NCBI GenBank assembly: GCA_049999805.1
Contig: JBNGIO010006293.1
Location: forward strand, 214,166 to 267,940
Origin: Folioceros fuciformis
Lineage: Eukaryota
Length of the DNA: 53,775 bases
Direction: 5' to 3'
A program made the translations under genes and the position numbers. The notes beneath the pieces are model-generated. The model saw only the letters and a program-made list of their open reading frames with translations. It did no database searches and was not told the origin of the DNA. Of the stretch, positions 1 through 52,665 are shown piece by piece. How positions within the stretch are numbered: position 1 is the first letter of the stretch; each line of letters starts with the position of its first letter.

Positions 1-56
1 GCACGCACGCGCACACAAGAGCGACCGGGGGGGTGGTGTATGATGATGCTTTTCCG

Positions 57-3858: not shown

Positions 3859-6110
3859 CTAAAGTGTCGATGAACTCCAGCTGTCATCCACTGCAGCCAT
3901 GATTTTGCTATGCAGGACCGTCCCAGCACACGCGATAACCCCTCTGTCCAGACCCTCCAAATACCTGCCTCTGGAGAAATCCAATGGACACCCTCTGGCA
4001 TCCGTTACCACACCTCCAGCTTCCTCCACAATCAGAACCCCAGCCGCATGGTCCCAGATTTTTTCCTTGTACCCAACTTTCGCGAACTTCATGAAGATCT
4101 CAGCATCTCCCCGAGCTATAGCTGCATACTTCGCCATGCTATATATTCGCAGCGGCCGGGACCTGTTGGATGTTACCAAGGGAACGGAAGTTATGTCCTC
4201 AATGCAGATGATCTCAAAAGCATTCCAAGAAAAACTTAGGAGGCAATATTCATGCAAGCGACCAGGCTACTTTGCGACGCAACACCACGATAAATTGACC
4301 AGCATTACCTTAGGCCAATACTGCTGGCTACACCTGCCGAGAAATGGTGACTAGAGTTCCCCTTCTCCACAGGCTCACAGAAGGCAGCTTCGGCAGGGTC
4401 TGTGATATTCGAAACATGAATAGGCAGAGGTGATGCATTCTCGAACTGGTTTGTGCCTTCTGAGTTCCACACCAAAGGCTCCATCCAAGCCCCGCCTCCC
4501 CCCTTGGTTGCAGTCATCAGGCAGCCCTTGTGCCACAGGCTTGGTTTAGGAGGTGAAAGTTTGCTCGCAAGTCTGTAGTACTTATGACCATATTTCAGCC
4601 ATTCCCTCCTCATCGGGAAATTTGGACAACCTAAAAGAGCCAGCACAACTTCTCCATCCTGGATCATAGCCAGGGCCACAGCATATTGGTCACCTCGGAC
4701 AAAACCAAGTGTCCCATCTACAGGGTCAAGCACCCAATGACGTCCCTGGGGACCACCTTGAGAACTTCCTCGACTGATCGCTTTCAACACATCTACAGTC
4801 GCAAGGGGAGCCTCAGGGGGTGTAATGCCAACCACTGACGCCTCACTCAAACATTCATTCACTGCAGCCACAACTCGTCGCAGCAAGTGGATCCCATCCA
4901 TTCCTCTCAGATCTTCTGTGTCCTCTTCAGCGACAATGGACAAACGCTCATCTGGAAAAGCTTGCGTAAGCACCCAGCTGATCACTGCCTGCACCCCCCA
5001 GTCTGCTCCAGAAACGAGGCAACCTCACGTGAGTGACAACCCCAGAAGTCTGCATGCAATCATATCAAATGCAAACTGCGACGGATAGATCTTCATGGCA
5101 TATTCTAATCATACCAGAGAGGGAAGCCCACCGTCACTTCTGTTTTACCTCATGGTTGCTGGAAATGGCTACATGCATGCAACAGAACCTCAACTCACGG
5201 GGGTCGCGGGACAAGTTTTCGAGAAAGTACCTGCGATGGTCACAAGCGAGTGATCACTTTTAGCACTTGCCTCCTCCTCATGTCGCAGAAGTCGATCCTG
5301 TATTCTCTGGGTAAGCATGCAAGCCAACTGAACTGCACGTGAGGCCACCTCCAACTCCCTGCCATACTTTCCTGAGTGACTCTTCTGAACCGTGGGTCCA
5401 GTCACCTTGAATTCAGCCATGTTTGCACCTTCCATATTTCCAGCATCTTGCACAGCGTTCAGGTCTGCATGCAATCTGCTATCATGATTGTTCAGCTCCG
5501 ATGAAATTCCCTGACAGCCCTTGTTCTCCAGTACCTTACCAGGCAGAGCCGATATCTCTTCTTCTCCATTTCGGTTCGATTCACCTTGACCATTCACTCT
5601 AACCATGTCTACGGACGAGCCCACACTGTCCCCTTTCTGTTCTCCAGTAGATGAGAGCTCATGCGCGGCTACGTCTTCTGCTGGTGCCAGCTTCACAGAC
5701 AAGTCCGGTAATTCTCCCTTGGATAGATTCACAAATGGTAGGGCCGTCTGCAATGACTGATCATCTCCAGCCCCAATATAGTCTTGAAGCCCGATACTGG
5801 TAGGTCCTTTTCCCTGCAGACTGCAGACGGACAAAGTCCTCCTCTTACCCTGGGAAGCGGCTCCCATTCCACCAACATCGGATAGCCATTGACCATTTGC
5901 AGCACCCGCCTTGCAGAGATTGTACTTGCACTTCACGGCCTCCAGACTGGAGAGATTGACCCCATGAGTCATCTGGGAGACGCTCATCAATCCGAACAGC
6001 GATTTTGGATACAAGCATACGGGGTGCGAGCATGAATGTTGGAAAGCCAACTCTGTGGGTGCTAAGCACGTTAAAGCTGGCGAATGCCGAGAACCGGAAG
6101 TACTCCACAT
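3859..6110 (-). CDS. AHL: PAP-specific 3'(2'),5'-bisphosphate nucleotidase, HAL2-like (AHL clade)
   Basis: Three exons (about 6110-5231, 5002-4309, 4162-3859) with GT-AG borders splice in frame (TIA/DWG, LR/SRPLR). Motifs: KSDHSLVTIADW, AEED, WVLDPVDGTLGFVRGDQYAVALA, EKIWDHAAG. Start codon uncertain. Confidence 0.9.
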
Positions 6111-10757: not shown

Positions 10758-13415
10758 ATGGCGTCCTCCATAGCTCAAGTGAGTGGCGTCAGGTGTGCAA
10801 GCTCGATAGCCTCGCAGTCGACTGCCTCCTCCAGTAGCAACAAGGGGGAGGCATGCCGGGGAATGGCGAATTTTGCTGGCCTCAAGAGCACCACCGGGTT
10901 GCCCCTCGCTTCGTCTCTGGAGAGCATGTCATTGAAGAGGAGGGTGTTGAAGTGTCTGAAGGCAGGAAGGGCGAGCCAGAGAGCGGCTGTGGTCTGTATG
11001 GCAGCTGAGGGTATGGTTTCAGGCTTGGTCTCTATCGTCTGTGCGAGAACGTGGTGCGAAGCGTCTGCGGTTGGATGCGGCTGCCTCTGACCTTTGTTGT
11101 CTTGTTTGTTCAGATAAGCGAGTGGTTCCTTTATCTGACTACCGCAACATAGGTATCATGGCTCACATAGATGCTGGAAAGACCACGACGACAGAGAGGA
11201 TTTTGTTCTACACGGGTAGGAACTACAAGATTGGGGAGGTCCATGAGGGCACTGCCACAATGGACTGGATGGAGCAAGAGCAGGAGAGGGGAATCACTAT
11301 TACTTCTGCTGCCACGACGGCTAAGTGGAACAACCACCGTATCAACATTATCGATACACCAGGGCATGTGGATTTCACTCTTGAAGTTGAGCGAGCTCTG
11401 AGAGTCCTTGATGGAGCTATCTGTCTTTTTGATAGTGTGGCTGGCGTTGAGCCGCAGTCTGAGACCGTGTGGCGTCAGGCGGATAAATATGGCGTTCCTC
11501 GAATCTGCTTTGTGAACAAGATGGACCGACTGGGAGCCAACTTCTTCAGAACCAGGGACATGATCGTGAGCAACCTTGGTGCTGTTCCCTTGGTGTTGCA
11601 GCTTCCTATCGGTGCCGAGGATACTTTCTCTGGAGTAGTGGATCTTGTGACGATGAAAGCCATTGTTTGGAGCGGAGAGGAGCTGGGGGCGAAGTTCGAG
11701 GTGGTTGATATCCCTGAGAACTTGCAGGATCTTGCTGCAGACTACAGGGCTAAGCTGATCGAGACTATCGTTGAGCAGGATGATGCTGCCATGGAATTGT
11801 ACCTAGAGGGAGTGGAGCCATCCCTGGAACAAATTGTGCAGCTCATCAGGAAGGGGACCATCGCCTCTGCCTTCGTACCTGTCCTTTGTGGATCCGCCTT
11901 CAAGAACAAGGGTGTCCAACCTCTGCTGGATGCAGTGGTTTCATACTTGCCGTCACCTTTGGATGTCCCTCCAATTAAGGGATGCGACGTGGATGATCCT
12001 TCTGTTGACGTAGTAAGACTGCCTAGCGACGCTGAACCTTTTTCAGGGCTGGCATTCAAGATTATGAATGATTCGTTTGTTGGTTCCCTTACATTTGTAC
12101 GTGTGTATTCGGGAACGATATCCGCTGGAACCTATGTCGTCAATGCCAACAAAAACAAGAAGGAGAGAGTTGGGAGGTTACTGGAGATGCATGCTAACAG
12201 TCGGGAGGATGTAAAAGTCGCTAGAACAGGAGACATTATTGCCCTTGCTGGTCTGAAGGATACCATCACAGGAGAGACTCTGTGTGACCCAGACAAACAG
12301 GTGATTTTGGAGAGGATGGACTTCCCAGACCCTGTCATAAAGGTTGCCATCGAGCCCAAGACGAAGGCAGATGTTGACAAAATGTCTGCGGGTTTGATCA
12401 AGCTGGCTCAAGAGGATCCCTCCTTCCATTTCTCCAGGGATGAAGAGACTAACCAGACAGTCATTGAGGGCATGGGAGAGCTCCATCTGGAGATCATTGT
12501 GGACAGGCTGAAGAGAGAGTTCAAGGTAAGTTTCAGCACCTTCTGTGTCCTCGTACCACAGAGGACGATCAATACTCAAGATCTGACTTTATTGCTGATT
12601 TTTTGTTGCAGGTGGAGGCCAACGTTGGGGCTCCCCAGGTAAATTACAGGGAGAGTATTGGAAAGCAAGTGGAGGTGAAGTACGTTCACAAAAAGCAGTC
12701 AGGTGGTCAGGGGCAGTTTGCTGAGGTGGTCATCCGATTTGAGCCTCTTGAACCAGGATCTGGGTACGAGTTCAAGAGTGAAATCAAGGGTGGAACAGTG
12801 CCCAAGGAGTATGTTCCTGGTGTGGTGAAGGGATTGGAAGATATGATGAGCAATGGTGTGCTTGCCGGGTATCCTGTGGTGGATGTCCGAGCTGTGCTGG
12901 TGGACGGTTCCTACCACGAGGTCGACTCAAGTGTGTTGGCCTTCCAGCTTGCTGCTCGTGGAGCTTTCAGAGAGGGCGTTTCAAAAGCAAACCCAAGGCT
13001 GTTGGAGCCTGTGATGAAGGTGGAGGTGGTGACCCCGGAAGATAACATGGGTGACGTGATCGGTGATCTCAACTCCAGGCGTGGTCAGATCAACAGCTGC
13101 GGAGACAAGCCCGGTGGCATGAAGGTTTGTTTGTTTGTTTTGTTCTCCTTGGCCCAAACTTTCTGGAGAAATCCAGTCCAGGTCTGGTAACAGTCCTGAT
13201 TTACTGGAAGCTGGATTCTTACTTGCATATTGCTGATTTTCCAGGTGGTTGATGCTTTGGTGCCACTATCGGAGATGTTTCAGTATGTGAGCAATCTCAG
13301 GGGCATGACAAAGGGCCGCGCTTCGTACACAATGCAGCTTGCGCAGTTCGAAGTGGTTCCTCAGCATATTCAGAACCAGATCACTGCCAATGCCAAGACC
13401 GCCTCAGTCGCTTAA
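10758..13415 (+). CDS. EF-G: plastid translation elongation factor G
   Basis: Exons 10758-11010, 11114-12525, 12612-13124, 13245-13415. Ser/Ala-rich transit peptide, then [25 protein letters not shown] and NKMD GTPase motifs and the EF-G domain IV/V sequence. Confidence 0.96.
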
Positions 13416-18150: not shown

Positions 18151-18510
18151 AACATTATCATATAGGTTTTAACTTCTTGGGGGGCTGGAAGTGATGGGAA
18201 GTTGATCACCAATGTGGGCCACAAACGACGCTGTGATAACCCCACGTATTTTAGAAGGTTCCTTCCTTTAAAGCTTTACTAGAGACAACGTATGCAAACA
18301 ATGGTGAATCCTGGATTCTCCTTTGCCGTATGGGCGATCTACTCATTAACTGTGTCGGGTGACCTAAAGTTAGGTAGGTACTGACATGGTGTCAACTCAA
18401 TTGTGCAGCGAGTTGACAAACCACCGCCTATCAGGATCTAAACCTACATACAGTACCTACCCAGATGTGTCCACAAGAGCGGGAACACAGGGTCCCCAGG
18501 CAATGATGAA

Positions 18511-21395
18511 CTACACAGGCCGGAAGCCATGTCTCAGGGCAGCTTCCCACGTCAAGTCTATCCGGCTGACGTCAATGGCTCCCACTTCGTGATGGTCCCA
18601 GCCCTCCAAGACGTGCACAAGGCCACCAGCATGACACGCATGGGCTACTCCTCGTGGCATTGTCATCTGTCCAGGATACAGGCCGAACACTTTGTCATCA
18701 TGCTGCTACAAGGCAGAGAGACATGGGCGTTTGAGACGTGGTCACTAGGCCCAGAAAGTCGTTACCTCACAGCTTCGAATGCCTTTCATATCCTTCGGTA
18801 ACCGCATGCCAGCTAGCTTGCCGTATGTACAGTCCTCCCGGACCTCGGCAATGGGGGGCACCACGAATTGATGGAAATGTGTGCCGCTGGGAGCCCAACT
18901 TTGGTCTACTGAGCTTGCCCACTTGCCCATGACCCAATGCTGGACGATTTGGGAAGGAGGTCGTCAGGACATGTGGGCTGGCGCACGGACGTAAGGGACG
19001 AACTTGAGGCAAGCGGACATACCTTGCAAGATTTTCCATCTTGGTACTTAGTTGCCTGGATCAGGAGGTGTCGGTGTTCCGGTGGTGCTTCACTCTTGAT
19101 GGCTTCGAAACGATCTTTTGAAGTGGTTAACATCTGCAAGGTGGAGGGGAGCTCGTCAGATAGGATGCGTAATGACACGGGCTACGTCACATGGACACAG
19201 CGAGGGCATAGCGCATACCAGGACTCGCACTCCACGCCCGCAAAGGTACAACCCAATTGCACGTCCAAGCTTAGAGGTAGCTCCTGTCAGGAATATCTCC
19301 TTCACATCCTTGGGGATCTTATCTATCATCACACCTGCTGTAAGAGTGTTCCCATGAACCACTCGGATTCCAAGATTGGGATACTTCTGGACGAAGAGAG
19401 TTCCGCCACCGTTCAGGCCCTCGTTCTGTTAGAGATTATTAGTCAGTACACAAAACAGAAACGGACAAGGCATAAGCAGGAGCTTGAAAAGACGATGTCA
19501 GAGACGCCATGCCTTGTTCAGAGCACCCAAGCTGATCACTTTCGCTCCCTTCTTCTCAGCTCTCAGAATAGCACGCTCTATGAGGCTGTTGATCCTTCGT
19601 TTCTCGAAAGGCAAGAAGTACTGCGAAGTTCAGACACGCAGAGTTAAGGGGCTTCAAAATTGGGGACGAACTTTCTGCGAGAAAACTAATCGACTCATGA
19701 CGTCACTGAAGCCCTTCACGACGCTCACCTGAAAACCAAATCTAGGGATAACCCACGTCTGCAACCGTAGTTTGCCGAGGGTGCGTTTGTCACCCACAAA
19801 TGGCTGGCCGAAGATCCATAGTAACGCCATGACGGGAACCGTTAGCGGCCACAACGGCCAGAGGTACCACTTTGCTGCATAGGGATGTGCAGCAAAAGAG
19901 GGGATGCCAAAGGGAACGTGGAAAGTGGACAGAAGCTCAGTCCCATGCGCGAGAAAGATGAAATCAGGATTGTCTGGTCGACCTGCGAGAGGGGAAACAC
20001 ATATCACTACTTAGCAAACCAATTCAACCATCCACTCGAGATCGTGTCACAAGTTTCCTGATACGGAGAAAGTTATCAGTCAAAAGTGCAAATCCGAAAA
20101 ATGAAGATACCTTTCCTCACTTCTGCATGAAGACTGTCTGAAGATTTATCGACAGTGCCTCCAAGATAGTCGTACAGGGGCATGAAAAGGCAGAAATTCG
20201 TGTGAACTTGCGAATGATGCAGGGAGTGGAATCTGCGAAGGAATCGGCAATTCAGAAAGCAAGCTTGCGAATTTCATGACAGACAGTTCAAGCCCATGTC
20301 CTTGCGACGCAGAGACACCAAAGGGCACAGGAGAAGGACTCACGATGGGGTGTACACAAGGTACTTGAGTGGTGGGAAGGCTCGGAATAACCAGGTTGGC
20401 ATGAATTCAAAGTTGCAGTGCCCTACCGTGTTCATGAAGTCGAACCAAAGCCAGTAGAAGTAAAACATGCCCATGAAAGCATTCCCAAGAATCCAGGTCC
20501 CAAGCATAGGTATGGCAAAGATTGCCGTGTACATGAGGTGTTCTGCAAAGGGGTGCACCGAACCTGCAGGCACAGGATATTGCGACAAAGACTGGAATTC
20601 ATCAGAAAAGCTACACCGAATCCGACGTAGGACCGCATTTCTACATCTGAAGCCATACATACCTGTGATCGGCTCTGTGATGAACGATGCATGATGATGC
20701 GAATGATAGCGTGTGTAGAGGTAGTGGTGATGCAGAGCCCGATGTCCCCAATAGTACACATACTCTGTAGGCCCAATGTGTAGGAGAAGCATGATGATGA
20801 AACCTTTCTGACTCCAGAAAGGCACGTTGGTGAATCCGGGGAGAACAGCACGAACAATTGTTGCCACGAGTACGTGCAACAAAATATAATCCTCCCTGCC
20901 AGTACAAGGACGCTTCTGTTAGTTCGCATAACAGCCAGTTCCATCAAGGACAGCCTGCTGTCCAGCAAATTGCTATGTCGAATGATAAAAGGAGTAATAA
21001 ATGCCGCCTGAATTATACCAGTTGCTCTCACGGTCTACTTGGTCAAAATTGATGCCTTTGGTCTGAATCTGGTACTTGTCCGCAAAATAGTGCCACCTCG
21101 ACAGAGTCATCCACATTTGCCCGTGCAGATACCTCAATGCTGCTACGAGCAACATGTGCAGACAGAAATTGTCTGCGTCATGCCCTCCCAAAAAATTTGC
21201 ATGCACCGCCTTGGCTGCGAACGGGAGATATAGAAGATACTGCATCAAAGAATTGAAATCAGCTCAGCACTTCCTGTGCACCACAAAATCTGCGCACTCA
21301 GCCCAGTTGCCTCAAAGACGAACATCCAAACTTGCCTTCAGGCTGCCGAGCTTCTGCCAGGGCCAGTCGTACAGAAGGCCTGGCTTCATCGCCAT
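18511..21395 (-). CDS. CER1/3: ECERIFERUM CER1/CER3-family (fatty acid hydroxylase + WAX2 C-terminal domain) cuticular alkane enzyme
   Basis: Multi-exon gene: [13 protein letters not shown]..., [71 protein letters not shown], ending [12 protein letters not shown]. Confidence 0.92.
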
Positions 21396-23449
21396 TCCGA
21401 CAGACACTAACAGACACGGCCCTCCGACGCTTTTCTGGTCACAATCTCGTGCAATTCTACTGTCATTCCTCAGCAGCCGAACATGTTGCCGGCATCCACT
21501 AGGGCAGCAGAGGCAATGCGGATGCCTTAAACTGTCAGACAGTGAGATCACGTTGCTGCACTCTACCGACACTTGGAAGGCGCCACACTGAGCCTGCGTT
21601 TTGCAGCAGAGCTACAGAATTTGAAGTGCGGTTAACCTCAGGTTTCCTGCGAACCGGATAGGAAACCAGTCGCCGTTCTGCGACCACGCGGTGACCCTGG
21701 AGTCGTGAAGACACAGCTCCCAGGCATTGACGGATTTTTCTGGCCGCCTTATAACCATTGGCCAATAGGGATGTTCCATTTCTCAACATATCACATTTCG
21801 TATTGGCCTTTCCTGGAGAGAGGCTGGAAGATACCGGATACGAGTCAACCTTTTCAGCTCACAGCATAGAAAAACGACCACCCACCGCAGCAGTCATTTT
21901 TGATCGAACTGAAGCACCAAACGTGTGTTGAAAAAGGAAACCAACTCGCCCGCCACTGAACGCATGACGTCTCTGTAGGCTTTCAGCATCGTTTCAGGGA
22001 CAAGAAGACTTGAAATGAAGAGCCTGTCTGAGATGGCCCAGATATGTCTCTAGATACTTCCTCTCCGGAAAGCACTTCAAAGCAGTGAAGCCGATGAACT
22101 CCTCAAGAGCCAGAGAGATTAATTGGAGGCTCGGATGGAGGCCTCTGGAGATTGATCCATCCGGAGGCAGATGGTGCAATCAGATCTGGAAGCTTCCATC
22201 AAAGCTCCTCTGCAGCTAGAAAGGTTGGTTGGAAGGCATCAGCAGGTGGTGCAACCTGATCCGGAGGAGAGCCAAGGAAGGGCAATAGCTTTTGATTCCG
22301 GACGACATGCCGAGGAGGGGAGCCGAAGGTGCTTAGACCTAGAGTGTCCAGAGCCTGGATAGATACATGCACGAGATGCTACCAGACTCCAGAATGCGCA
22401 ATGTGAGGTTGACTCGATACAATACTGCAGACAATCGTCCATCACTTTCTCTTCTCGCACTTCAATAACTCCTCTTTCAATGCTGTGTGTCAGTTTGCCG
22501 AGAAAACCAGGTGAAGCTGGTGTTCTCCTCCCGTGGCCACAATATTGTTTTAACTTCCCTGCAAACACGGAATCGCTCAGGTCCTAGAAATGTAGATGCT
22601 TTCATGGGTTTACCATCTCTCTATGCCTGTACTGAGTACAGGTTTCTGGCCCTACATCCTCCATGCAGCTGGTACACCGTGTGGCGGAATCCTGCAGCGG
22701 CCACGGCTCGTGAATTCATGTTCTGGTTAGGGTTTCAGCTCCGGCCTAATCCAGCACCCTGGCATCGTTGTGAGAACCTACGGTTTCCATAAGCTTCCGA
22801 CGCGGATCCCGAGCAAGAGCACCCCGGAATGAGAAGCCCTACATACCAGCAAAGAACGACGGAAGGAGCAAATGTGCCCTGATCGGCGAGCATACACAAT
22901 ACATACAGTAATAGCTTTACTGGGGTAGGTGTACGTACAGATGCAACGGGCAGATCCCGAAGGCGGGCGTCGGCTGTCCGTGAGGAGGCTCTGACAGGCC
23001 TGCAACGTGCAGAAGCCAGGTACCCACGCAATCACAGGCTACAGGCTCTGACCTGACCTGACCTGACCAGCTTCGAAAGCTGCTTCTAGCAACAGCGAGC
23101 AGGGCACAGGTGTGCGTGGCCGACATCGCGCCTTTGGAGGCCGAGCCCTGCCTTTTACCCTTGGCTGCCTTGCTTCGCTGTTCTCGATTCCCGCGCCTGA
23201 GCAGTTTGATATCATATCCGATTCCTGTCAGCGGTTGTTTGCGGAGAGTAGTGAGACGGGGCCTACCTTCACCTGGACACCGGAAACACAGCAGCCCGGC
23301 CATCGACATCCACATCCACATCATCCATCCTTACATCCGTAACCATATTGGTACCGTCACAGGTGGGATTCACTACCTCATATTTCTGATAGCTCCAAAA
23401 CATCGGATAGCATATAAGAACTCATGATCGATTAGTCTGCATTTTCTGT

Positions 23450-24752: not shown

Positions 24753-24826
24753 GCTCCCGTAGCTCAGTTGGCTAGAGCATTGGTCTTATGAGCCAAAGGT
24801 CGCGGGTTCGACCCCCGCCGGGAGCA
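24753..24826 (+). tRNA. tRNA-Ile (anticodon UAU), intronless
   Basis: Acceptor GCTCCCG/CGGGAGC plus discriminator A; D-arm AGCTCAGTTGGCTAGAGC; anticodon stem TTGGT/GCCAA with loop CT-TAT-GA; T-loop GGTTCGA; TTTT shortly downstream. Confidence 0.95.
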
Positions 24827-25036
24827 CATCCCGCATAGCCATTTTCGCCACTTGCTAAATCATTGCAGTCGAACATATTTTAGTGTACTATCCCCTCGTG
24901 AATGCCGCTAGTTGGATCCCCCCTGGACTTGTCCCATGCCCATTATGAAACGTCCGTTGAAAATTCTGGTTGCATAAAGGCTTAAAAGCTGTCCCAAAAG
25001 CAAGACCAGGGACAGAAGACAGTCGTGGCAAAAGCA

Positions 25037-25438: not shown

Positions 25439-26704
25439 TTATGGTAAAGGGGGCTGGAAGTTGGGGTAAACGGGCTGAACGGGGCGGGTGAAAGGTAAAA
25501 ACGTGGTACACTGGGACGTCGTGCAGGCTCGCCCTTCTGCCTGCCTTGTCCTCCTGCTGCTCCGCCTCGGCTGCCGTGGCCGCTGCTGTTCCTGCTCCTG
25601 TTTTGGAACCTTTCGGATGCATTGGCGGACGAAGCATCTAGATCTCTTGCGTCGCCCTGCCGCCCTCGGCGCGTTCTGATTGTGATTGTGCCCTGGCTGA
25701 ATTCGCGAATTTGGGAGCGGAGCTGTGGATGCGATCTCTGCTTGGAGGAAGCGGAATGCGAGAATGTGAAGAATTTGCAGAATTTCGGGACATGCAGTGT
25801 TGTTTTCTGGCTGGGGGGNNNNNNNNNNNNNNNNNNNNNNNNNNNNNNNNNNNNNNNNNNNNNNNNNNNNNNNNNNNNNNNNNNNNNNNNNNNNNNNNNN
25901 NNNNNNNNNNNNNNNNNNTTGGAGTGTGTGTCTGATCCGGCCGCCAGGTAGGTGAGGGACGACGGGAGGAGCTCGGTGAGGGAATTGTCCGGCTCCAAGA
26001 TGTGGCTGGTTGGAGGTTTGGAATGGCGTTTTCTGCTTCCGAGGAGCTGGCTGTGCCGGCCAGCTCTGGTGATGTGAGCGGCGGGGAAGGATTGGCTCGA
26101 AGAAATTCTGGCGGAGATCCGCTACAAGGCGTGCCTTCGTGACTCGCAGGTTTTTCTGGTTCGAGCTTGGTTTGGTGGAGGGGACGTACGCGGAGCTGCC
26201 GTCGTTACGTCTCTGGTGCTGTATTGGAAAGCTCTGCTGCTTGGCTGCTTCCGCGCTACAGCCGCGGTGTGTCTTTCTCGCTGATTGCAAGGGAGAGCTT
26301 CCTGAAGGTCGAGTTGCGCTCTGTCTGTAGAGCTTGATCCGGAAGCGGCGCTGGAACAATTCGGTTTCCGTCGCACGCTGGGTCTCCGTGTCGGCGGCTG
26401 GCGGGATTGTCCTTGATTGCCCTTTCTTGGGATCGAGGTTGGGATCGGAGAGGCTGTGCGAGCTACAGGAGCTGCCCGTATTGAGGCTTCTCAGGTGCTG
26501 GGAGAAAGAACATGTAGCTTCGAGAACCGGAGCTGTGGAGGCAGTAGCTGGCTTCGCGCGCAAGTATCTGGACGTTGAAGTGTAGAATGATTGGCTGGGA
26601 TGACTGCAGGAGCGTGCATTGCTGAACAGGAAATGCTCAGAAGCCAGTGCCAAGCATTGGAATGGGTTTCGGCAGGTCTGAACCGGCGACATCGTGAGTA
26701 CCAT
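25439..26704 (-). CDS. orphan S/R/P/Q-rich ORF interrupted by an assembly gap
   Basis: About 260 stop-free codons from the ATG at 26704 to the N-gap (25819-25918). It is not a shadow of a plus-strand ORF. No recognisable domain, and the frame after the gap is unknown. Confidence 0.35.
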   Translation of the reverse strand: MVLTMSPVQTCRNPFQCLALASEHFLFSNARSCSHPSQSFYTSTSRYLRAKPATASTAPVLEATCSFSQHLRSLNTGSSCSSHSLSDPNLDPKKGQSRTIPPAADTETQRATETELFQRRFRIKLYRQSATRPSGSSPLQSARKTHRGCSAEAAKQQSFPIQHQRRNDGSSAYVPSTKPSSNQKNLRVTKARLVADLRQNFFEPILPRRSHHQSWPAQPAPRKQKTPFQTSNQPHLGAGQFPHRAPPVVPHLPGGRIRHTLQXXXXXXXXXXXXXXXXXXXXXXXXXXXXXXXXXXPQPENNTACPEILQILHILAFRFLQAEIASTAPLPNSRIQPGHNHNQNAPRAAGRRKRSRCFVRQCIRKVPKQEQEQQRPRQPRRSSRRTRQAEGRACTTSQCTTFLPFTRPVQPVYPNFQPPLP

Positions 26705-26979: not shown

Positions 26980-29900
26980 ATGGCGGAAGAGGACCTGGCG
27001 GACGCCCGTAAATCCTCGGTAGACCTGGGGAGCGATCGTTTGACTCGCCTGTTCCAGACTCTGCTGAAGGAGAAGCTTGCGTGCTTCCCGGTGAGCGCTT
27101 GAACGGAGGAAACGACTTCTTGCTCGCTTGTTGAATGTCTGCCAATTTGACGAACCTTGTTTTCGTGCAGCAGGATGAGTTGCCAGCTTCGGACTCTGTG
27201 AAAGCGAACGAAGGGGAAACTTGGAAGTCAGATGGAAAGGGCTTGTCGGATGAAGTGAGTAAAACGTTTGATTGTTCAAGCTGGCTCTCCGTTTCGTCGG
27301 AATGATCTGTAACTGGTTGCGGAAAGAGCATTCTGAGGCAGTGGTGGTGGCGTGACTTATGTGGTAGGAACGCTGTCAAGATGCGGAAACAAGCAGGAAG
27401 GCCCTCAGAGTGGTTGACATATTCTCTGCAGCGTTAGCTCGTCAAGCCGCCGATACAGACTACAGTATCCTTCAATGCTGCGTCTGGCGTCCTCTTGTGG
27501 ACCTCCTCAGACGTCCTCAAGCTATCACTGTATGGCAAGATCTGGTGCTATTGTTCCCCAAGCTGGTACGAGTTGAGGCGTGTACATGGTGAAACTTCTG
27601 TCGCTTCTACTTTTCATCATGGCCTGACGTCTTTTGGTCCTTGTTGCAGCTCGCAAGGCACGCAGGCGACTTACTTGGAAGGAACGCCGATGGCCATATT
27701 CTTTGTGAAATGTTTGGTTGGCTGTTGTTCATAGCAGCTTTGGACGACAGAGATGCTGTGAGGCAGAAGGCTCGGTCCATATTGCGCCTCTTGTTAAAGG
27801 TGGGAAGACCTGGGAAGTTGTTCAATGCTGCAGGTTTCTCGTAATTCTCCTCCTAATGGTGTTTGTTGGCTGAATGCAGAGCGCTTTCACTGAGCATGGA
27901 GGACTTGTGCAAATGAAGGTCATATCCACCATGGCCCTCATGGATATCCTGGAATTCCGTGTGACAACCCAGCAAGCAGACACAAATAGTTGCGACAGCC
28001 ATTCTAGTGCCCACTCTTACAGAAGGTCCAAGTCAGTGTGCACAACTCAGAGCCGAGATTCAAGCTCTTTCGAGTGGAGTGACAGCGAGGCAGAGCTTGA
28101 GCAAAGAACCTTCAACAGGTCCGAGACCTTTGGTAATTTCAGGGATTCGTCGGACTCCGCAGATTGGTCTCCTAGAGCCAAAGTTGACTCTCCCTCTAGA
28201 CAGTTCAAACAGCGGCGTAGAGACAAGGTGGGCAGAAGATCAGGGGACTTTGTGAAGCTTCCATGGAGCGAGGAGCTTGATGTTCTGAAGGGGCCCCTGC
28301 CTCCTAGTGGCAGCTTGCCTTATCTCCGACGGAAATCCAGCGCCTTATCCAGTTTCTGGACTGCGGACTCATTGGAGAGCATTCTGAGCTGTCTCTACCG
28401 TTTGGAGACATTAGAGGCCAACGACGTCTCTGGTTATCATGGGATGGTGGCACTGGATTTGGACGTATTTGGTTGGAAGGAAGCGCTACGGGACTTAGTG
28501 GTAACCCTACAGCACGTTTTCCAAGCTTGGAGTGAGCATCATAAGATGGTAAGATGTGTCTGCACACTCTCAGCATATCGATGACTGATAGTTTTGAGCA
28601 GCTCATTTCTGCAGGATTCATCTCTGGTGTCCCATTTTCTGGTGATCGCCAGCGGCACCCCTGACAATGTTGTCGTGAAATCCCGCTATCTGCAGATTGC
28701 AAGACAGTCCGTAGATAAGATTCTGTTGGCGGAGACCTGTCTAGCTGTATCCAGAGCATGTTTCCATGTCCCAGATCTTAGCATACAATGGCTTCTTCGA
28801 CTCAGCCGACGGTACAAGGAGGACCACGCCGAACTGCACCAGCCAGAAGCTGCGCAATGCCTCGTGGCATGTGCAAGCATTATCATCCAGCACATGATGC
28901 GGTCAAGTGAATGTTCTCTGTGGGGGACGCCACACCTGCGGACGCTACAAAAGATTTGCCCCGACATGGTAATCATCTTTCCGAAGCTTCTGGGTGGTCG
29001 TCTAGAAAGGTTGCCTTCGGTGCCAAGACCCATGTCACAGGAAGGCGGTGCTGCTGGCTTAGGTTCTTTGTCACAGACAGCTGATGTGGACTACGGTCAG
29101 AGCGTTTATTATTCCCTTCTTGGTTTACCACCAATCAGTAACAGCAGGCCTGATGAGCAGAGGCCTCACCTATTGGACTCAGTCTTAGAGGACGACTCCC
29201 TAGATGCGAAAGTTAGAGACAATCTGGCGGATGCACTGATTCAAATCAGCAAAGAGCGGATTAGCGTCGACATGAGTGATAAAGGGTTTGTGGTCACGAA
29301 GGGTGATCTACTGAGCAGGTTCAAGTCAAGGTCGTTGCCAGCAATCAATGGAGGCCGAGCCCATGTGATTGGATCAACTGAAATTAACTTGGATAGAGCT
29401 CTAGAGCATTTGCACGAAGCGAGTGAACTTTTCAGGGAAGCTGGTTTCTTGGAGACGGCAGCTGAGCTGATTGAGCTTACAATACCGGTCTACCAAAATC
29501 GGAAGGCGTACAAAGAGTTGATTAAGTGCCACGCAAAACTGGCTGCCGTATGCAGCTCAGTGTGCTCCCAGGCCGAGGTGTGGGGTGAACCAACGACAGA
29601 TGCAGCCTACTATCGTGTTGGTTTCTTTGGTGATAAATTCGGACCAAGACTGTGCGGAAAGGAATATATCTATCGAGAGGATAGGTCAGTTTGAAAGTCG
29701 CTGCTTCAGAGTTGACCGCCAGCAGTAAGATTGGTAATTAACGTACGATGCACTTTCGTTTGTTTCTTGGCAGGCACACACATCTGTCCGATGTGACGGA
29801 CAAGATAGGGAACTTCTACGAGAGACAATTGGGTGGAACGCAGTTCCTACGTATCATATCTGATCCAAGTCAGATTCAACCTAGTTCCCTCATTCCAGGC

Positions 29901-30756
29901 ATCGGTTATCTTCAGGTTGTTCAAGGAAAATCTCCAGCTGTTGCCTGTCCTACTCTTCATCTTCATCCAACGCAAAATTTTTGACACCAACGCTTGCCCT
30001 ACTTCTGCTCTCCAGATTATCCCAGTTGAGCCCGTTTTCAGTACAGATAAGGCAAATCAAGGGACAAGAACATTACTGAGAACTTTCTGTTTTTCAACTC
30101 GCCTAACCAGAAGTACTGCATATGGCTCATCCTCCAGATGTAGCTGCGGGTTCAAGGGAGCTTTGCAGAAAAGGAGGAAAACTGTCTTGACAGTTCAAGG
30201 CTGTTTCCCAAACCTCGTGTGCAGGCTTGAAGTGGTGCAGACGGATCCAGTTGTCATATCGCTGGCCGAGCACATTGTCGACTCCGTCGAGCTGTGGACA
30301 CGGAAGCTCAGAGGTGCTATGGAAACAGCTGCAATGCAACTACACAGAGTCCTCCAGGGCATCCTCAGCGCTGTTTACACTCACCATATCTTGACAGTTA
30401 TTTCTATCTGCTTCAAGTCTCCAGGGTCTACGGGCCGTCATTTCACGTCCGAAGATAGGAGGACCAGCTTGGGTGACGACATGGGTAATGAGGAAGCAAG
30501 ATCTCCTCCGTCTTCTGGTCCTTTGCCTTGGGTACCCTGCTCTACATGTCTAAGTGCATTTGATGCTCTTCAACGTGACAGCGCTAGCAAGGAGAGGTTG
30601 AAGACAGCTGTTACCCTTTTCATGGCCACAATCAGGAAAGCACTCAAGGCACTTTCTGAACATCCAGACCGAAGAGACTGGAGGGTCCAAGCCTCTCTCT
30701 CCGACAAGGCGCATCAACTACTTAAGGAGCTCTCCGTCATAATCCAGAAGCCCTGA
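26980..30756 (+). CDS. divergent DOCK-family (SPIKE1-like) protein with DHR-2 domain
   Basis: Spliced exons follow SPK1 order: ADTDYSILQC, DAVRQKA, HVPDLSIQWLLRL, EAAQCLVACA, ELIELTIPVYQNRKAY..L.KCH, DAAYYRVGFFGDKFG..KEYIYRED, KRRKTVLTVQGCFPNLVCRL, LHRVLQG. The start is uncertain (ATG 26980 or 26830). Confidence 0.82.
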
Positions 30757-31518: not shown

Positions 31519-34500
31519 CTAAATTGCATTGACCTGAGGCCATTTGCCCAGCTCTACAGCCAATACCTGGCGATAGGGACGAATCTTATTGGCAAGCGAC
31601 AGGCTTGCGGGTAGAAGAGAATCCCTATCACTGCTTTCAGTTTGATCTGTCTCCTCAGCAAACGTTGATATGTCACCTAGAAGATCAAACTGAAGATACC
31701 GAACGGCAATAACCTGCCCAAAATCATAGTACAGGGGTGTTCCAGGCCGAGTAATGGGGAGTGAATATACTCCCACTGGGACTGGCGCTTGAGAGTCGCC
31801 CTGTAACCGAAACACGTCAGTTACGCCTAATTCGCATCGTCAACCTCAAGCCCACAACAGATTCAGACGCACAAGAATGTGAACTGAGGTGATAAGCAGC
31901 GAGGGCAACAAACATCTAACCTGAACTGCGGACACACTTATTTGCAGTGAAACTGGATTTGTGACAGCTTCATCAATAGCGCTCCCAAGAGCCTGGTCCA
32001 AGACCCGGATTTTGTTGCTCGCCGATATTGTGTACCTGGCTGCACTTTTCACTGCAGCAATTGCATCCAAGCGAAACCCTGCGATAGGCGGCGCATTAGG
32101 TGCTATAAATTGCTGCACCTTCCGACCACCACCAGCAATCCTTTCACTTTCCACTTGTACCTGGGGGAAAGCAGCCATGAGCACTCTACACAAGGAGCTG
32201 TTGTGCTTGCTGTCAAATTAAGCATTCTAAACATCAGGCACAGACGAAACGGATGGAATCCACACCTTCAGACGGGCTGTTCGAGCTGAGGTGTCCAAAG
32301 CGTTTCTGGCAATCATTCGGTCTTGACCTTGAGGCATGTACTCTGTGTCTTCTGCCAATTTTCCCAATACCAGAAGCCGTTTTGCATGTATACAGATGGG
32401 CCCCATTGCTCCTCTAGGCGGCGAACCAAGGAGGTCTTGACTTGCAGTAGACACATTTTGGAGGCTTATCCTCACCCAGAGTATCCGGCAGCGGACAGGT
32501 TTCGGGAGGTTCAACAAGACGTGACGAGGAGCAGCGGAAGTTGCTGATGTAACAGATTCTGGACCATAGATACTTTCCGATGCTGAGCCAACACCAGCAC
32601 CTATAGCACCAATGTCCCATCTGCCGAGCGACAACCGCTCTGTCTCTGCAACTGTGTTGCTACACCAGACATCAATCTGCATGCAGGGTGATCAGTTAGA
32701 AACAAATTTGCACTGCTTAGGTGAGGGTCCCATCAATAAAGCCACGTGCTTACCTGGGGTGTTTCTTGAGGTGAATAACCACATGGACTAACGATTAAGC
32801 ATACAGCTGAGACTAAAGACTGTGCATTGAGGACAATTGATATATCAGCACTTGTGATCCCAAAAGGAAGCTTCCAGTATGACGAACCAGCCTTTGGATG
32901 TGCTATAAGAGATTGCGCTGGCTCTGACCCTTCAGCTGCAGGTACCTGTATTTCACACAAGCTTCTTGAGGGACATGCTTATTGAATTCAAACCGCTTCT
33001 ACACCATACTCCCAAGGCGTCCAACAACTCAATGCACATCAGCTTACCGATGACAGCAGACTTGCATATGGGTACTCTGCAAGCGATGTCAATCCTTTGT
33101 AAGGTAGTTGAAGATCATCAGTGCTTGTATTTTGTCGAGTTGATGACACCGAGAAACTGCTATTTCCCGGTCCAATTGTGAGACCAGCAACCTCCGCCAA
33201 TGCTTTAGATAGCGAATTTTTCACTCTGGTTTTACGGCGCACTGAAGCCAGAATTCGAACACGGTCTAAGAGTACTCCATCCCTATATGTCTGAGGGCAA
33301 CATGCCTGACATAGCACAGCATCCTCGGCGGGGGGACCTCGCGCAGGTCCAGTGCTGAAAGTTGCACCAGAAGATCCTGCTGCAATGCCCCCTAAGTTTA
33401 CCAGCAATGTACATCCATTTTCAGTCCTACAAGCCATACATACTTTTCTCTTGCAGCTGTCACAGGCAGCAAGCCCTGTGGTTCTCGTTGACCCGCTCAT
33501 TTTCTTTCGAATCACTACTTCACAATCTGGATGAGAGCAGCAGTCCGGAATCATGTCGTCCATTTCTTCACTGCTCGACTGGCCCTGCACTTCGAGGCCA
33601 ATAGCAGCAGCCTCCTTATCCTCTTCAAATATATGAGTGGCAAGTGCCATCTGAGATGCCGCCTGCCTAACCTGTGCAAGCTGGTTCAGGCTCAGCATAG
33701 AGTTAGGATCCAGCGTTGCAGGATCCCGGCCAACTGATAGCAATGCCCGATCCCGCTCAGCTGCAGATAAACCCAAGGACAGCCGTGAAATCTCGAGTTC
33801 CATCGCTTCTTGATAGTTTATCGATTGTCTCTACAGACAAGCAATTAAAAACAAAGGATTCAAGAGTTGCTCAGATGATAATTATCACCTTCAAAAGAGA
33901 ACAGTGTCAAGCAACACAAACACAAATGAAAAAATGTTTCTAGCAGAGGGACGTACAGAATCTGAACCTAGAGTCTTCTCCAGTAGCTCCAGATATCTTT
34001 CTGCAGCTGGATTCAACTTCAGTGGAGAGCTACTCTGCAGAGACATAGGGCTTGTCAAGTTTGGAGTTGTTGATTTCCCTGGTGTGTGCTGGAGAGCTGG
34101 CGAGCTTGAGCCAGCAGATGGGTCGTCAAAGGGATCCCAGTTGATCAGATCAGAAGCAATCGACTCTCCTTGTGCTACGGAACCAGACACTGGCAATGGT
34201 GTGTGGAAACTGTCACTTAGCAAGTCAAAGGCAGCAGGAAGTACGTCAGGGCCTGTAACCTGGCTGCTAACATGGTCATGGACTCCAGACAGAAGGTCTA
34301 CAGGAACCTTTCCTGGAGTCAGACTCTCCCTCCTCATACTGCTAGAGGATGGAGCGCTCAAGCGCTGTTGCTCTACATGTTTAGATATCCCACCAGAGAA
34401 AAGAGACACACCAAGGACCTCCACCTGGAATCACAGAACACAGCTAGTTCAGAGTGAGTGATCGATGTGCTAGATAACAACACCAGGAAATTCTGTAGGT

Positions 34501-37500
34501 ACTGAGTAGGGTGTGACGCAGCATCATACCTGACCAAGGGAGATGGGAATTCCAGGTGAAGCGGGATAAAATGTCAGCACCACAACTCGAGTCAGGAAAT
34601 CCAGCTCCCCCTCTTGCTCTTCGAAGTTATAGAGCCAACAAGAATCCCTCCCCCCTGTCCCTGCACCAGTTATAGCAACATCCTCTGCACTCCTGGCACC
34701 TGGTAAGATATACAAGAGTTGTGTTCCATTGGCGCATCTTGGGACAGTTGCACCCTGAAATTCAAGGCACAGATGGCGACGTTAAGATCAAATGAACCAG
34801 AGGCTGTCTTGCTCCTGCATGCAATCAGAACTAAACAAACAAAAACTGAGCTAGGCTCACCTCAAGAACAAGCTTCAGGCTATCAAGATGACGACCAGCC
34901 CGGATGTCAAAAGAAGAAGGTGATGTAGAGTCATCTGCTCCATGCCCAACCGTCAGCAACAGCTGAGAAGCATGGCAAGGTTCGGAGAGGAATATATACA
35001 GCTCCACCACTTCCGCTGCTGAAGGGCACACCTATCAACACAAGTCAGAGACAAATGAATATCTGCATGATTCATTTCGGAACATGTGTAATTTCATCGG
35101 GAACAAAGAAGGTCATGTGTGAACCGCTGACGTACATACCCAAACGATGTCCTTGTATTTGGCACTAATGAGAGCATTTTGAGGGGCTGTGTTCGGAAAC
35201 ATGCTCGGGACTGTTTTGAGCAGACATGCATTTGGCCGAGTCAAGGCCTGCAGTGGTAGAGACACCTGTCAAGCTATTTCACGATTTCAAAACATAGTTT
35301 CAGATTTCTTGGCACTGTTTAGTCACGAACCTGCAGAGGTTTGTCTGGCAAACTAGGAAAGTACTTGCTCAACCGCAACCCTAGAAACATTTCAAGTTGC
35401 TTTTGTCGAGTGCTGTCCATGACCACATTCAAAAATCGTCTTTGCAAAGTGATTGCTAAATTTTGTGCTGGTGACAATGTTTTCGCTTTGCCTCCTTCTT
35501 CACTGAATATCTGGATAATATGACTGTGCATGGCTTTGGAGCCTGTGTAAAGAGTAGCATGGATATCACCGGAGATGAGGAACAGTTCAGCCATTCCAGC
35601 TACAGCACTGGGGATGGTAGCCTCCTTAAACTCATCCACAGTCATGTCAAATCGTATCCAAGGTTTATCCATGCTTGACTCCTCTGGACAAGGATGATCC
35701 CAGGTTGTTTTCCTTGTGTTATGATCAATATAGAATGTCCTTCCAGTAACTCCGTCAGTTCGCTTTTCCCAACCTGGAGGAAGGGAAGCCTCTGGTGCTT
35801 CAGTCCTACCATTGATCGAGCCACTTGCAGCAGTAACCTTCCCAGAGTCAAGGGGATAACCTAGCTGCCTGCACTGCTCAGCAAGAACCTGTACAGCACC
35901 AAAGAAGCTGGCTGCATTGGTCCTGTCAAGAGAATCTGCACAGTTGAATCTTATAACTCCGTCCTGCTTCTTCACAGTTCTAAAAGCTCCCCCATAGGCA
36001 CCTCTATTTGGAGTTAACGAACCTGTAAAATCTTTGGGCTGTTGGCCTTTAGCGTAATATTCGCCTAGATCAAATTTTATATCACTTGTTGGGTCTTTGA
36101 GCAGCTGCCACAGCCCCTCCACAGTCTTTGGTTCCCCGATGGCCCTAGTCTTGTCGTGCCAGTCGTAGTCAAGAAGAAAAATTCTTGCATCATCATCCTT
36201 GCGATGCGATCTTGCAAATTTGACGGACTCATGAAAATGCTGCCACAGGACTGCCTCGGGCTTTCCAACTCCGCTCCTCAGAAGATTAATGCAGACTAAT
36301 GGCGGTTGCCTTGACTTGCTAGCCGCCTTTACACCTGAAGCATATCGACGGCTGAGCCTTCTGAAGTATTGAGGGGAACCTTCATAGGTCCTCTTCTCAC
36401 AAACAAAAATTTCAGCTTCCGCAATGTTGGACTTGATCTCAGCCCCCCACCACAAAGGGACCGTTCCTCGCCGCCAGAGGTACATAGCGAAAGGAACTGG
36501 CAGTCCTGAAGTAACATGAGGCCAAACCAGCTGCTCACACTCAACTTCATTCCCTGCAAATTAAGATCGGACCAGAGAAAGAGTAGCCCGCAGCTTCAGT
36601 CATGGGGATGTTTCAGAGTGATTGGTAAGAATGGTTAGATACTTTAGGCAATCAAACCTGTGCTGAAAGCTCCATTCATGCCCCGAGCCAGGTACCTCGT
36701 TCCAGCATGCAAACGGCTTCGTCTGGCCGTAAGAGCTACGGTTAACTGCTCACCATCAAGAGTTGAGAATGTGCGACTATCTGCAAGCCCCTGCACCAAA
36801 AAGCTTCGAATCAGACGATACCTTGCTTTTCAAAGATTCAGATGCCGTCTGTTGAGCTGTTATGACAGGCAACCACCCGAGAGTTTACATGTACCTGCAA
36901 AAGAACCACACAGTGCCGGGGCAAACCAATCGCCTTAAAAGGAGATGATAACCAGGAGTTCCAGGCAAACTCCTCGTCTGGAGACTGAACGGAACTGGGA
37001 CTAGGGAACGGCCGAGTGATGTCCCTTGTCTCACAGAAGAAATGGACGTTGTCAATGTCAATGCCCGCGAAATCGGATGCATTCTTCGCCTCCCCTTTCA
37101 GCAGAGGCTGCGGATTTCTGAGAGGAATTTTTACCCACTTGCTTTCGACAACCGTTTGAACAGAATCACCGCCCGGAAGAAAAGAAATGGATGTCCGTAG
37201 CCTGATAGCGACGAGCAGGAGGCCCACGCTTCCGAGCACAGCATAGCCAAGAATTGCTTTCCCATACCAAGTGCTCTTGGGAATCCAACGCGAGTTGCCT
37301 GTCACAAACTGCAGAGCCTCCGCCTCTGTCGGAAATACATCCACCCCTGGCCGACCAGAATAGCAGAGTGCGCCTGTCGTCGGATCGACCCCGATAACCT
37401 GTGTTTCGCGCTGCCCGGAGAGGCTCGTGATGACAAAGAACTCCCCTGACTCCAACTCCACCACAACCACTGTCGTCTCTGCTCCATCACCGTGGATCCA

Positions 37501-37628
37501 CCACAGAAAACAGGGTTTCAGCGAAACTCGAACACAAAGCACCGAGACACATCACAACATGCCGAAGACAGGAGACGCACAGCAAACAAAGCATTGCCTT
37601 CCTCTCACATACCCCGACGTTCAGCCAT
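31519..37628 (-). CDS. SAC9: phosphoinositide phosphatase SAC9
   Basis: Multi-exon. SAC domain with WRRGTVPLWW and catalytic RFNCADSLDRTN, WW domain LPPGWEKRTDGVTGRTFYIDHNTRKTTWDHP, and the long SAC9-type C-terminus (EQEGELDFLTRVV, LSAAERDRALLSVG, LSLANKI). The start is inferred from a short first exon (MAERR). Confidence 0.93.
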
Positions 37629-38682: not shown

Positions 38683-38833
38683 ACATAGTCCTTGATTACA
38701 AGGTGCTACAGCAAACATAGTCCTTGATTTCAAGGCTGCTACAGCAAACATAGTCCTTGATTACAAGGCTGCTACAGNNNNNNNNNNCTGCTACAGCAAA
38801 CATAGTCCTTGATTACAAGGCTGCTACAGCAAA
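38683..38833. repeat. about 33-bp tandem repeat spanning an N gap
   Basis: acatagtccttgattacaaggctgctacagcaa is repeated at least 4 times; Ns at about 38778-38788. Confidence 0.85.
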
Positions 38834-40847: not shown

Positions 40848-41608
40848 GCTTTTGTGTCATCTCTAGTCGTTTCGACAGCTGAGGTCCTGACGGCCTGCCT
40901 CACTCCTGGTTTGGATAGGGACGCAGTAACTTGTTGTTGCGGCCTGTGTGAGGCTGCGGCTGGCAGAGAGGCGGAGTCCCGAGTGATATCTTCTATCAGT
41001 TAGCTTTATGGCTTAGATTTGATCAGCTGGAGGAAGGGAAGAGGATCATCTGCGTCTCAAGAGACTCTTCTTCTGGCGTCCGATACGGACTGTGGAGAGT
41101 TCAGGATTCTTGTGTAGTTCGGGAGGATCATTCTTGTTGTAGCAAGCGTGTGTTTTTGTACTTAAGTTGTCGTGTAACCTCGGTAAAGTTTCGCATTTAT
41201 CGACGATCTCATCCGGATGTGCTCTTCTGGAGAACTTTAGAACGCGGTCCTTTTCATGCTGACTGGTCGCGCACGTAGCGCACCTCGTCATAGAAATCTT
41301 GGGGAGATCGAAGAACGCTCGCAAAGCGGTATGCAAGCTGATCCTTTCTGCGAACCTTCTTGCGATGAAGTTTACCCTGTCATCTCATTTAAGACGGAGT
41401 AAATTGGATGCTTGGGCACTGGAGGAAGAGAAAGCTTGGGAGCCCGGTGAGAGATGCGTGCTACGAACCTTGGTAAGCAGAGTATGCGAGTGTTCTTCTC
41501 CGTTAGCGGACGACAACATGGACAGCGTGATTGGCTTAACCAGCCCAACTGGCGCTCCGGATCTGGGTCTCGTTGGGTTCAGAGCTTCAGGCTGTAGATG
41601 CGGAAGGC

Positions 41609-45145: not shown

Positions 45146-45540
45146 ACTGATCTCTGTGCTACCCTGCGGTTAGGTTAGACAACGAATACTACATCACAGA
45201 GGGAAAAAAGATGGTTTAAAAGAGGGCAACAGCCCGACGATGGGAGTAGCCCTAGCATCAAACATTTCAAACTCTGTACCAGCTCCTTGAAGAATCAGGA
45301 CCGACCACTGCCACTGTCGAAGAAGTCCTTCGGGTTAGAAGTAGATGAATTTTCTATCTCCTGCACTTCATTGTTCCAACAAAGAACAGTAGTACATAAA
45401 CATTCGTCAATAGACGAGTCTTTGGTGGAATATTCATTCTCGGTTAGACTAATTCGTTCATTTCGGAGTGAAGTTCGACCGGCACCTTTCATGTGACAGA
45501 GCATGAGCGGAGGCCGGCCGGCAGAGCCAGAGCTTCGGCT

Positions 45541-52550: not shown

Positions 52551-52665
52551 TTCACAAGATTATAAAATGTGTAAGCTTACGTTCACAAGATTATAAAATG
52601 TGTAAGCNNNNNNNNNNTATAAAATGTGTAAGCTTACGTTCACAAGATTATAAAATGTGTAAGCA
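52551..52665. repeat. 31-bp tandem repeat spanning an N gap
   Basis: ttcacaagattataaaatgtgtaagcttacg is repeated; Ns at about 52608-52617. Confidence 0.85.

Follow-up and report, generated by a model that had tools for sequence, protein, structure and literature searches.

The question raised by this locus is whether a land plant has kept, within one polypeptide, the two catalytic halves that angiosperms carry apart in the CER1 and CER3 proteins of the alkane-forming pair. We have analyzed a stretch of 53,775 nucleotides (nt) from Folioceros fuciformis (contig JBNGIO010006293.1, positions 214,166 to 267,940), hereafter the window, in which an earlier note, made from the letters alone, had proposed at 18511-21395 a gene with a CER1-type N-half joined to a CER3-type C-half. 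Our answer is that this gene encodes an undivided CER1/3-type enzyme, with both catalytic halves in one chain, a reading to which we would give a probability of about 0.7. Activity of both halves without a partner is suggested by analogy with the published algal homologues. The type itself is already known, its bifunctional algal members having been published in 2026, and the window gene adds to it a member and a lineage and no new principle.

The region 18511-21395 of the minus strand corresponds exactly to the limits of the coding sequence, with the ATG at 21395 and the end of the stop codon at 18511. The gene model, built by hand, has a coding sequence of 1866 nt in 11 exons (21395-21336, 21239-21019, 20895-20663, 20563-20344, 20232-20111, 19982-19729, 19620-19513, 19425-19219, 19133-19023, 18939-18766 and 18666-18511, all on the minus strand) that translates into a protein of 621 amino acids (aa). 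The 10 introns are of 83-128 nt each; eight of them have GT-AG borders, and intron 1 (21240-21335, 96 nt) and intron 7 (19426-19512, 87 nt), both on the minus strand, are GC-AG. A single contig of 2432 nt from the run X3 skips all 10 introns at the exact borders of the model, including the two GC-AG ones, seen there with CT..GC ends on the plus strand. This run comes from the same organism and from a study other than the likely source of the DNA; its label 'RNA?' is a guess, and what we use as evidence is the spliced contig itself. The DNA run X1 was colinear with the window and gave zero joints at the gene, and from the runs X4 and X12 (a small share of words only) no contig was placed on the stretch. 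Since all 10 introns are joined exactly in the independent X3 contig, this is a genuine, intact gene whose mRNA is spliced. Homologues of 621-622 aa, 73% identical, align with the model over its entire length (1-621), and no second copy of the gene was found by tblastn within the 53.8-kb window.

The same contig reaches a 5' leader of at least 182 nt (21396-21577, minus strand) and a 3' untranslated region at 18200-18510 (minus strand), where one piece is unbroken over 18200-18666 and the transcript contig extends further. The leader has three upstream open reading frames (ORFs) of 10, 4 and 19 codons, with their ATGs at 21495, 21484 and 21466 and none of them in frame with the main ATG, and they could signal translational control.

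In its domains the protein has what characterizes CER1/3, an N-domain of the FA_hydroxylase family and a CER1-like_C (WAX2) domain combined in one chain of ~620 aa. In Pfam, CER1-like_C was matched by three of the four pieces of the C-half, two of them well over the cut-off (77.6 and 73.6 bits) and one under it (20.8 bits against 28.3), with E values of 1e-21 and 2e-20 on the last two exons. The closest full-length homologues, 73% identical, have both FA_hydroxylase and CER1-like_C well over the cut-off. The metal-site motifs of the N-domain are located at 20214-20744 (minus strand, as are all the motifs that follow) in states identical to those of CER1 and the algal CER1/3. They comprise the His boxes HRALHH (aa 145-150, 20744-20727) and YHSHHH (aa 157-162, 20708-20691), TEPITG/HPFAEH (aa 167-180, across intron 3 and ending at 20538, with HPFAEH at aa 175-180) and the third His box, FHSLHH (aa 246-251, 20231-20214). 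In the spliced protein HIGPTEY...HPFAEHL covers aa 133-181 and crosses intron 3. Thus all three His-rich motifs of CER1/3 are intact, and HPFAEH too.

Further along the chain we found PDFIFLAHG (aa 291-299) and VHGNTLTA (aa 429-436), followed by TGATSKLG (aa 453-460, within a string quoted before as 451-460; 19264-19287), a putative NADPH-binding motif. It contains the Ala-Thr pair of CER1/3, equivalent to A461/T462 in AtCER3 and A455/T456 in OtCER1/3. HACHAGG (aa 579-585, 18622-18642) brings in Cys581 (18636-18634), the putative catalytic residue and acyl-thioester nucleophile (cf. C587 in AtCER3 and C581 in OtCER1/3). In 15 CER1/3-type proteins 163 columns are invariant, and the window protein retains 159 of these. 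The strings from which the earlier note had deduced a CER1-type N-half (His boxes, TEPIT..HPFAEH and FHSLHH) and a CER3-type C-half (HACHAGG with Cys581 included) are all present in the spliced protein, and its proposal that the gene keeps both active sites is borne out at the level of the motifs, both sets being intact in one chain that the X3 contig shows to be expressed.

We compared these motifs over an alignment of 47 sequences that includes 10 named angiosperm CER1 and 11 named angiosperm CER3. All 10 CER1 have HRALHH, YHSHHH, TEPI(T/S)S..HPF and FHSLHH or YHSLHH in the N-half, and their C-half has a VDGSSLA-type string and a degenerate nucleotide motif. The HACHAGG cysteine was found in none of the 10. 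The string MSAWR, given before as the angiosperm CER1 counterpart, is exact in seven of them, the others having MSAAR, MSVSR or MSACR, the last one (P0102) with a Cys that sits one position later. The 11 CER3 all have TGATSKLG and HACHAGG, yet their N-motifs are altered, e.g., HRLLHS, YHSLHH and ..ATFLEH. The claim that CER3 differs in its N-half stands in this way for all of them, although the exact wording proposed, HPMTAG..LLEN, was matched only approximately and only in the Brassicaceae CER3 P0201 (NPMTAGNATLLES). Searching with the N-half (293 significant among 455 candidates) retrieved proteins named CER1 or GL1-4..6 and none named CER3 among the 120 matches listed. The last exon (129 significant among 153 candidates) retrieved CER3 or GL1-1..3 and no CER1 protein among the 120 matches listed, apart from two rows with only the generic Pfam name 'CER1-like C-terminal domain'.

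Compared with the two angiosperm enzymes, the window protein has the C-domain motifs of CER3 (WAX2, rice GL1-1..3), HACHAGG included, in identical state and with a median C-half identity of 60%, whereas seed-plant CER3 has the altered N-motifs (HRLLHS, YHSLHH, ATFLEH) and an N-half identity of ~40%, and the window protein keeps the full set. With angiosperm CER1 (rice GL1-4..6) it shares the state of the N-domain His boxes and of TEPIT..HPFAEH, with an N-half median of 52%, but those proteins have MSAWR where the catalytic Cys would be, VDGSSLA and a degenerate nucleotide motif, and a C-half identity of ~38%. We have also scored nine motifs over another 218 full-length relatives, and for each class we give the median identity to the window protein. 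Intact N-motifs with a CER3-like C-half, as in the window protein, define a CER1/3-type class of 56 proteins (N-half 59.1%, C-half 58.0%). Another 46 were CER1-type (51.9% and 38.5%), 90 were CER3-type (39.5% and 60.1%) and 26 had other or partial motifs. Within the CER1/3-type class the identities ranged from 53.6 to 75.8% in the N-half and from 34.7 to 75.0% in the C-half, and for the 11 closest proteins they were even over the halves (N 64-76%, C 66-75%).

Over the full length, the identity was 73% to Physcomitrium patens P0003 and to Riccia fluitans P0002, 72% to Sphagnum, 70% to Spirogloea and Calypogeia, 69% to Diphasiastrum, and 52-60% to many algal or unnamed proteins (52-62% for most of the algal-type rows). 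The same motif combination was found in mosses, liverworts, a lycophyte, zygnematophytes and other algae. Judging from these motifs, the look of a mosaic of CER1 (N) and CER3 (C) is a trait of the whole class, algae included, and not peculiar to the window gene. The two putative land-plant CER1/3 just mentioned, P0003 (named 'GL1-1' at NCBI) and P0002, have identical motif states over an end-to-end identity of 73% and fall in the same clade as the window protein, which differs from them in coming from another lineage. A search of a representative library with the moss homologue gave 1770 proteins at E<=1e-3 and 197 at E<=1e-30; CER1/3-type proteins are collapsed there into few clusters, and the search yielded mainly distant outgroups, Selaginella CER1 and one unnamed CER1-like row.

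Some relatives of the window protein depart from the full motif set. A paralogue of Riccia sorocarpa (P0011) has intact N-motifs and HASHAGG in place of HACHAGG, the Selaginella 'protein ECERIFERUM 1' (P0235) has intact N-motifs with QASHAGG (Cys to Ser) and VDGSTL, and Sphagnum compactum P0012 has intact N-motifs with TGATSNLS. By their motifs these three seem to be on the way to a CER1-like state, in separate or early steps. Full-length CER1/3-type proteins with all the motifs were found in the diatoms Nitzschia (P0068) and Cylindrotheca (P0101) and in the cryptophyte Guillardia (P0071); cryptophytes, but no diatoms, are among the secondary algae named in the main text of the 2026 paper (PMC13326499).

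Separate phylogenies of the N- and C-domains, the check that the earlier note had proposed, were built by quick searches from 75 rows hand-picked among the 219 full-length proteins: 11 CER1/3-type from land plants and zygnematophytes, 22 algal or unnamed, 16 CER3, 16 CER1-type (including the Selaginella ECERIFERUM 1) and 10 distant ones. Nesting in a canonical crown clade was seen for neither domain. In the N-domain tree the streptophytes split three ways at an unresolved fork, into the CER1/3-type proteins with the window protein (SH-like approximate likelihood ratio test, SH-aLRT, 84), CER1 (94) and CER3 (100), with a stem of 0.85 for CER3 against 0.14 for CER1. In the C-domain tree CER3 is a clade (100, stem 0.34) without the window protein, CER1 (98, stems 0.26 and 0.51) falls inside a group supported by 95 that includes eight land-plant CER1/3-type rows, the window protein among them, and three zygnematophyte-like rows are separate. 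In the best C-domain tree the window protein lies closer to CER1 than to CER3, although its C-half identity is higher to CER3. Its own branch is short in the two domain trees (0.20 and 0.19).

The long N-stem of CER3 and the long C-stems of CER1 indicate an asymmetric divergence of the halves: CER3 diverged mainly in the N-half and CER1 mainly in the C-half, and the lineage of the window protein kept both. The 'CER1-like N, CER3-like C' look is found because, after the duplication, the N-half of CER3 and the C-half of CER1 changed fast. The idea of two halves that had been joined does not hold in this respect, as the arrangement is ancestral and not secondary, with neither domain nested in the CER1 or the CER3 crown.

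A more careful tree was made with the full-length proteins (62 rows, 626 columns), leaving out the 10 distant and four long algal rows and adding one unnamed CER1-like row. CER1 (100/99) and CER3 (100/100) are each monophyletic with the window protein outside both, and a clade supported by 95/96 unites the window protein, seven land-plant CER1/3-type rows and all 17 CER1 rows, with alternatives that the approximately unbiased (AU) test did not reject. Constraining CER1 and CER3 together cost 9.15 log-likelihood units (p 0.205), and constraining CER3 with the land-plant CER1/3-type rows cost 9.50 (p 0.192). The window protein is not a canonical CER3, having N-motifs of the intact type and a position outside the CER3 clade (with the p of 0.192 for the tree that unites CER3 and the land-plant CER1/3-type rows). 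It is not a canonical CER1 either, having the Cys and the NADPH motif and a position outside the CER1 crown, of which it is a close outgroup (95/96, alternatives not rejected).

There is prior evidence of enzymes of this kind in algae. The name CER1/3 comes from Chaudhary et al. 2021, according to papers that cite it. Five algal CER1/3, two of them from streptophytes, are reported to make C15-C17 hydrocarbons alone in yeast (New Phytol 2026, PMC13326499), and in the algae studied CER1/3 is the sole homologue in the genome. In OtCER1/3 of Ostreococcus tauri, the same report describes that single changes in any His motif, in the Ala-Thr of the NADPH site or in Cys581 abolish production, and that the protein homodimerises; in AtCER3 the His motifs are dispensable and the Cys and the NADPH site are required (PMC13326499). 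An AlphaFold comparison has also been published already for OtCER1/3. The report lists putative CER1/3 with the algal motif set in some liverworts, mosses, lycophytes and ferns, and hornworts are absent from the names in its main text (PMC13326499). That each paralogue kept one active domain had been argued earlier by Kojima et al. 2024 (PMC11020225), and the boundary that separates CER1 from CER3 in early lineages is described as ambiguous in a 2026 review (PMC13510223). The algal proteins (OtCER1/3, KnCER1/3, MkCER1/3, PcCER1/3 and PsCER1/3; PMC13326499) share with the window protein the two-domain chain of ~620 aa, the same three His-rich motifs, the NADPH Ala-Thr pair and the catalytic Cys, which is C581 both in OtCER1/3 and in the window protein. 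The difference is that the window protein comes from a land-plant-like lineage and not from an alga, and that it is closer to moss, liverwort, lycophyte and zygnematophyte proteins than to the forms of chlorophytes and secondary algae, in a comparison where the Mesotaenium and Spirogloea rows are database proteins and not necessarily the published assayed ones.

In its mechanism, the enzyme would load a fatty acyl-CoA on Cys581 of the C-domain as a thioester, which would then be reduced with NADPH to an aldehyde; the N-domain would remove the carbonyl carbon of this aldehyde, leaving an alkane or alkene shorter by one carbon. In the endoplasmic reticulum the protein probably acts as a homodimer. 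We have found a relationship of the C-domain to cyanobacterial acyl-ACP reductase (AAR), a homologue over the nucleotide-binding and the Cys-bearing stretches. A profile of the 15 CER1/3-type proteins matched AAR (6jzu and 6jzq, with an E of 5.1e-07 for 6jzu) over two stretches. One is GNT.TA...GATS/GDIG, where TGATSKLG was aligned with the GATGDIG region, and in the other the Cys column of the family HAC was aligned with the Cys of 'FAC' in 6jzu. In AAR the Cys at this FAC position is the thioester nucleophile. A search of PDB with a single exon (58 aa) gave zero matches at E<=1, AAR being reached by the family profile only. AAR is a soluble stand-alone protein of 341 aa whose partner is ADO, an unrelated ferritin-like enzyme, whereas the window protein carries its reductase in a fusion with a membrane di-metal domain. 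The thioester and NADPH mechanism has been proposed both for AAR and for CER1/3 (New Phytol 2026, PMC13326499).

Several points weigh against an undivided enzyme that works alone. On the window's own N piece the FA_hydroxylase match was marginally below the cut-off (E 4.2e-07, 30.9 bits against 31), with a query that read through an in-frame intron. The algal enzymes alone in yeast are reported to give only C15-C17, with AtCER3 needed for C25 (PMC13326499), and the synthesis of cuticular very-long-chain alkanes by a single chain is, on the algal precedent, hypothetical. No functional work on land-plant CER1/3-type proteins was found among the top-ranked literature matches to moss and liverwort names and to hornwort wax. 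Besides, bryophytes are said to have diverged CER1 and CER3 homologues, a hornwort (Anthoceros) included, according to the review PMC13510223, and for this reason the window protein may work with a partner. Such a partnership is at the core of an alternative that we consider unlikely, in which the protein is the CER3-equivalent of this plant, an acyl-CoA reductase that passes aldehydes to a CER1-like paralogue or, on the way to primary alcohols, to an aldehyde reductase of the SOH1 type, with the conserved N-domain serving in dimerisation or structure and not in catalysis. Every catalytic motif of CER3 is indeed kept and with most seed-plant CER3 the C-half shares 56-63% identity (class median 60.1%, range 30.2-70.5%), the 73%-identical moss protein carries in NCBI a name of the CER3 group (GL1-1), and CER1-like partners exist in non-seed plants, such as the Selaginella P0235 with its Cys to Ser change and the Riccia paralogue with HASHAGG. 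The tree that unites CER3 with the land-plant CER1/3-type proteins was not rejected (AU p 0.192), and a conserved CER3-SOH1 module that includes SOH1 of Physcomitrium is described in the review (PMC13510223). However, the window protein keeps all the His-box residues, including three positions altered in most seed-plant CER3 (the second His of HRALHH, the middle His of HSHHH and the first His of HPFAEH). The branches of its N- and C-domains are equally short, which argues for ongoing selection on the metal site, and the free tree groups it with CER1 and not with CER3 (95/96).

Two other explanations are far less probable. A secondary chimera, with a CER1 N-half joined in this lineage to a CER3 C-half by recombination or exon shuffling, would account for the raw pattern of similarity, with the N-half nearer to CER1 and the C-half nearer to CER3, and for that pattern only. 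The pattern is common to the 56 of 218 relatives of the CER1/3-type class, including algae without CER1 or CER3, and the identity to CER1/3-type proteins is even over both halves. CER1 is monophyletic without the window N-domain (SH-aLRT 94), as is CER3 without the window C-domain (100). With no signal in the trees and neither domain within a canonical crown clade, we have rejected it as a very remote explanation. The three upstream ORFs in the leader might speak for a decaying or untranslated copy, but the frame is open over 11 exons, the transcript is correctly spliced and 159 of the 163 family-invariant residues are kept; the pseudogene reading was rejected on these grounds and is equally improbable. 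Within the reading of an undivided CER1/3-type enzyme there is a tentative extension, doubtful for now, in which the land-plant CER1/3-type genes are not a third, relic lineage but may be the still-bifunctional stock that gave rise to the CER1 of vascular plants. A single chain would then make the cuticular alkanes of this plant in place of a CER1/CER3 pair, and the two tasks would have been divided between proteins later, and more than once within land plants. It is based on the 95/96 clade with CER1 and on the intermediate-looking proteins of Selaginella (Cys to Ser) and Riccia (HASHAGG).

The rest of the window contains genes of other functions. A chloroplast-type elongation factor G (EF-G) gene (10960-13190, plus strand) had its best matches in an unnamed protein (90%) and a fern (89%), followed by lycophyte, mosses, liverworts and a desmid at 87-88%. 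In a quick tree of 28 rows it grouped with one unnamed protein (98), the pair falling outside mosses plus liverworts, outside vascular plants and inside zygnematophytes, with weak supports of 82-87. A hornwort would be expected at this position, which suggests a hornwort-like source without identifying it. An intronless gene of 1201 aa at 41540-45145 (plus strand) codes for a pentatricopeptide-repeat protein of the PLS class with an E motif, a class characteristic of land plants that edit RNA in their organelles. A homeobox ORF at 52915-53775 (minus strand) runs off the end of the window, with two near-identical homeodomain units split by Glu/Gln-rich repeats, a tandem duplication. Pfam searches on single ORFs identified an inositol monophosphatase/SAL1-like gene (3859-5024, minus strand), a DOCK-type DHR-2 protein (27874-30756, plus strand), a phosphoinositide phosphatase with SAC domain plus WW (33039-37551, minus strand), biotin synthase with its BATS domain (45472-47353, plus strand) and SSRP1/POB3 (49084-51475, minus strand), and there is a tRNA-Ile(TAT) at 24753-24827 (plus strand). 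With no lipid-related gene among these neighbours, the CER1/3 gene does not belong to a wax gene cluster. The runs of N that mark assembly gaps, at 25819-25918 (100), 38778-38787 (10) and 52608-52617 (10), all leave the CER1/3-type gene untouched.

How land plants came by the alkane-forming pair of CER1 and CER3 belongs to the history of the cuticle and of terrestrial life. With an intact and expressed copy from embryophytes that are neither mosses, liverworts nor vascular plants there is a ready test case, one that bears on whether very-long-chain wax alkanes can come from a single chain and on the timing of the division of labour. For testing the function of a land-plant CER1/3 for the first time the window gene is a reasonable choice, and a single-gene alkane synthase that takes long chains would be of interest to metabolic engineers.

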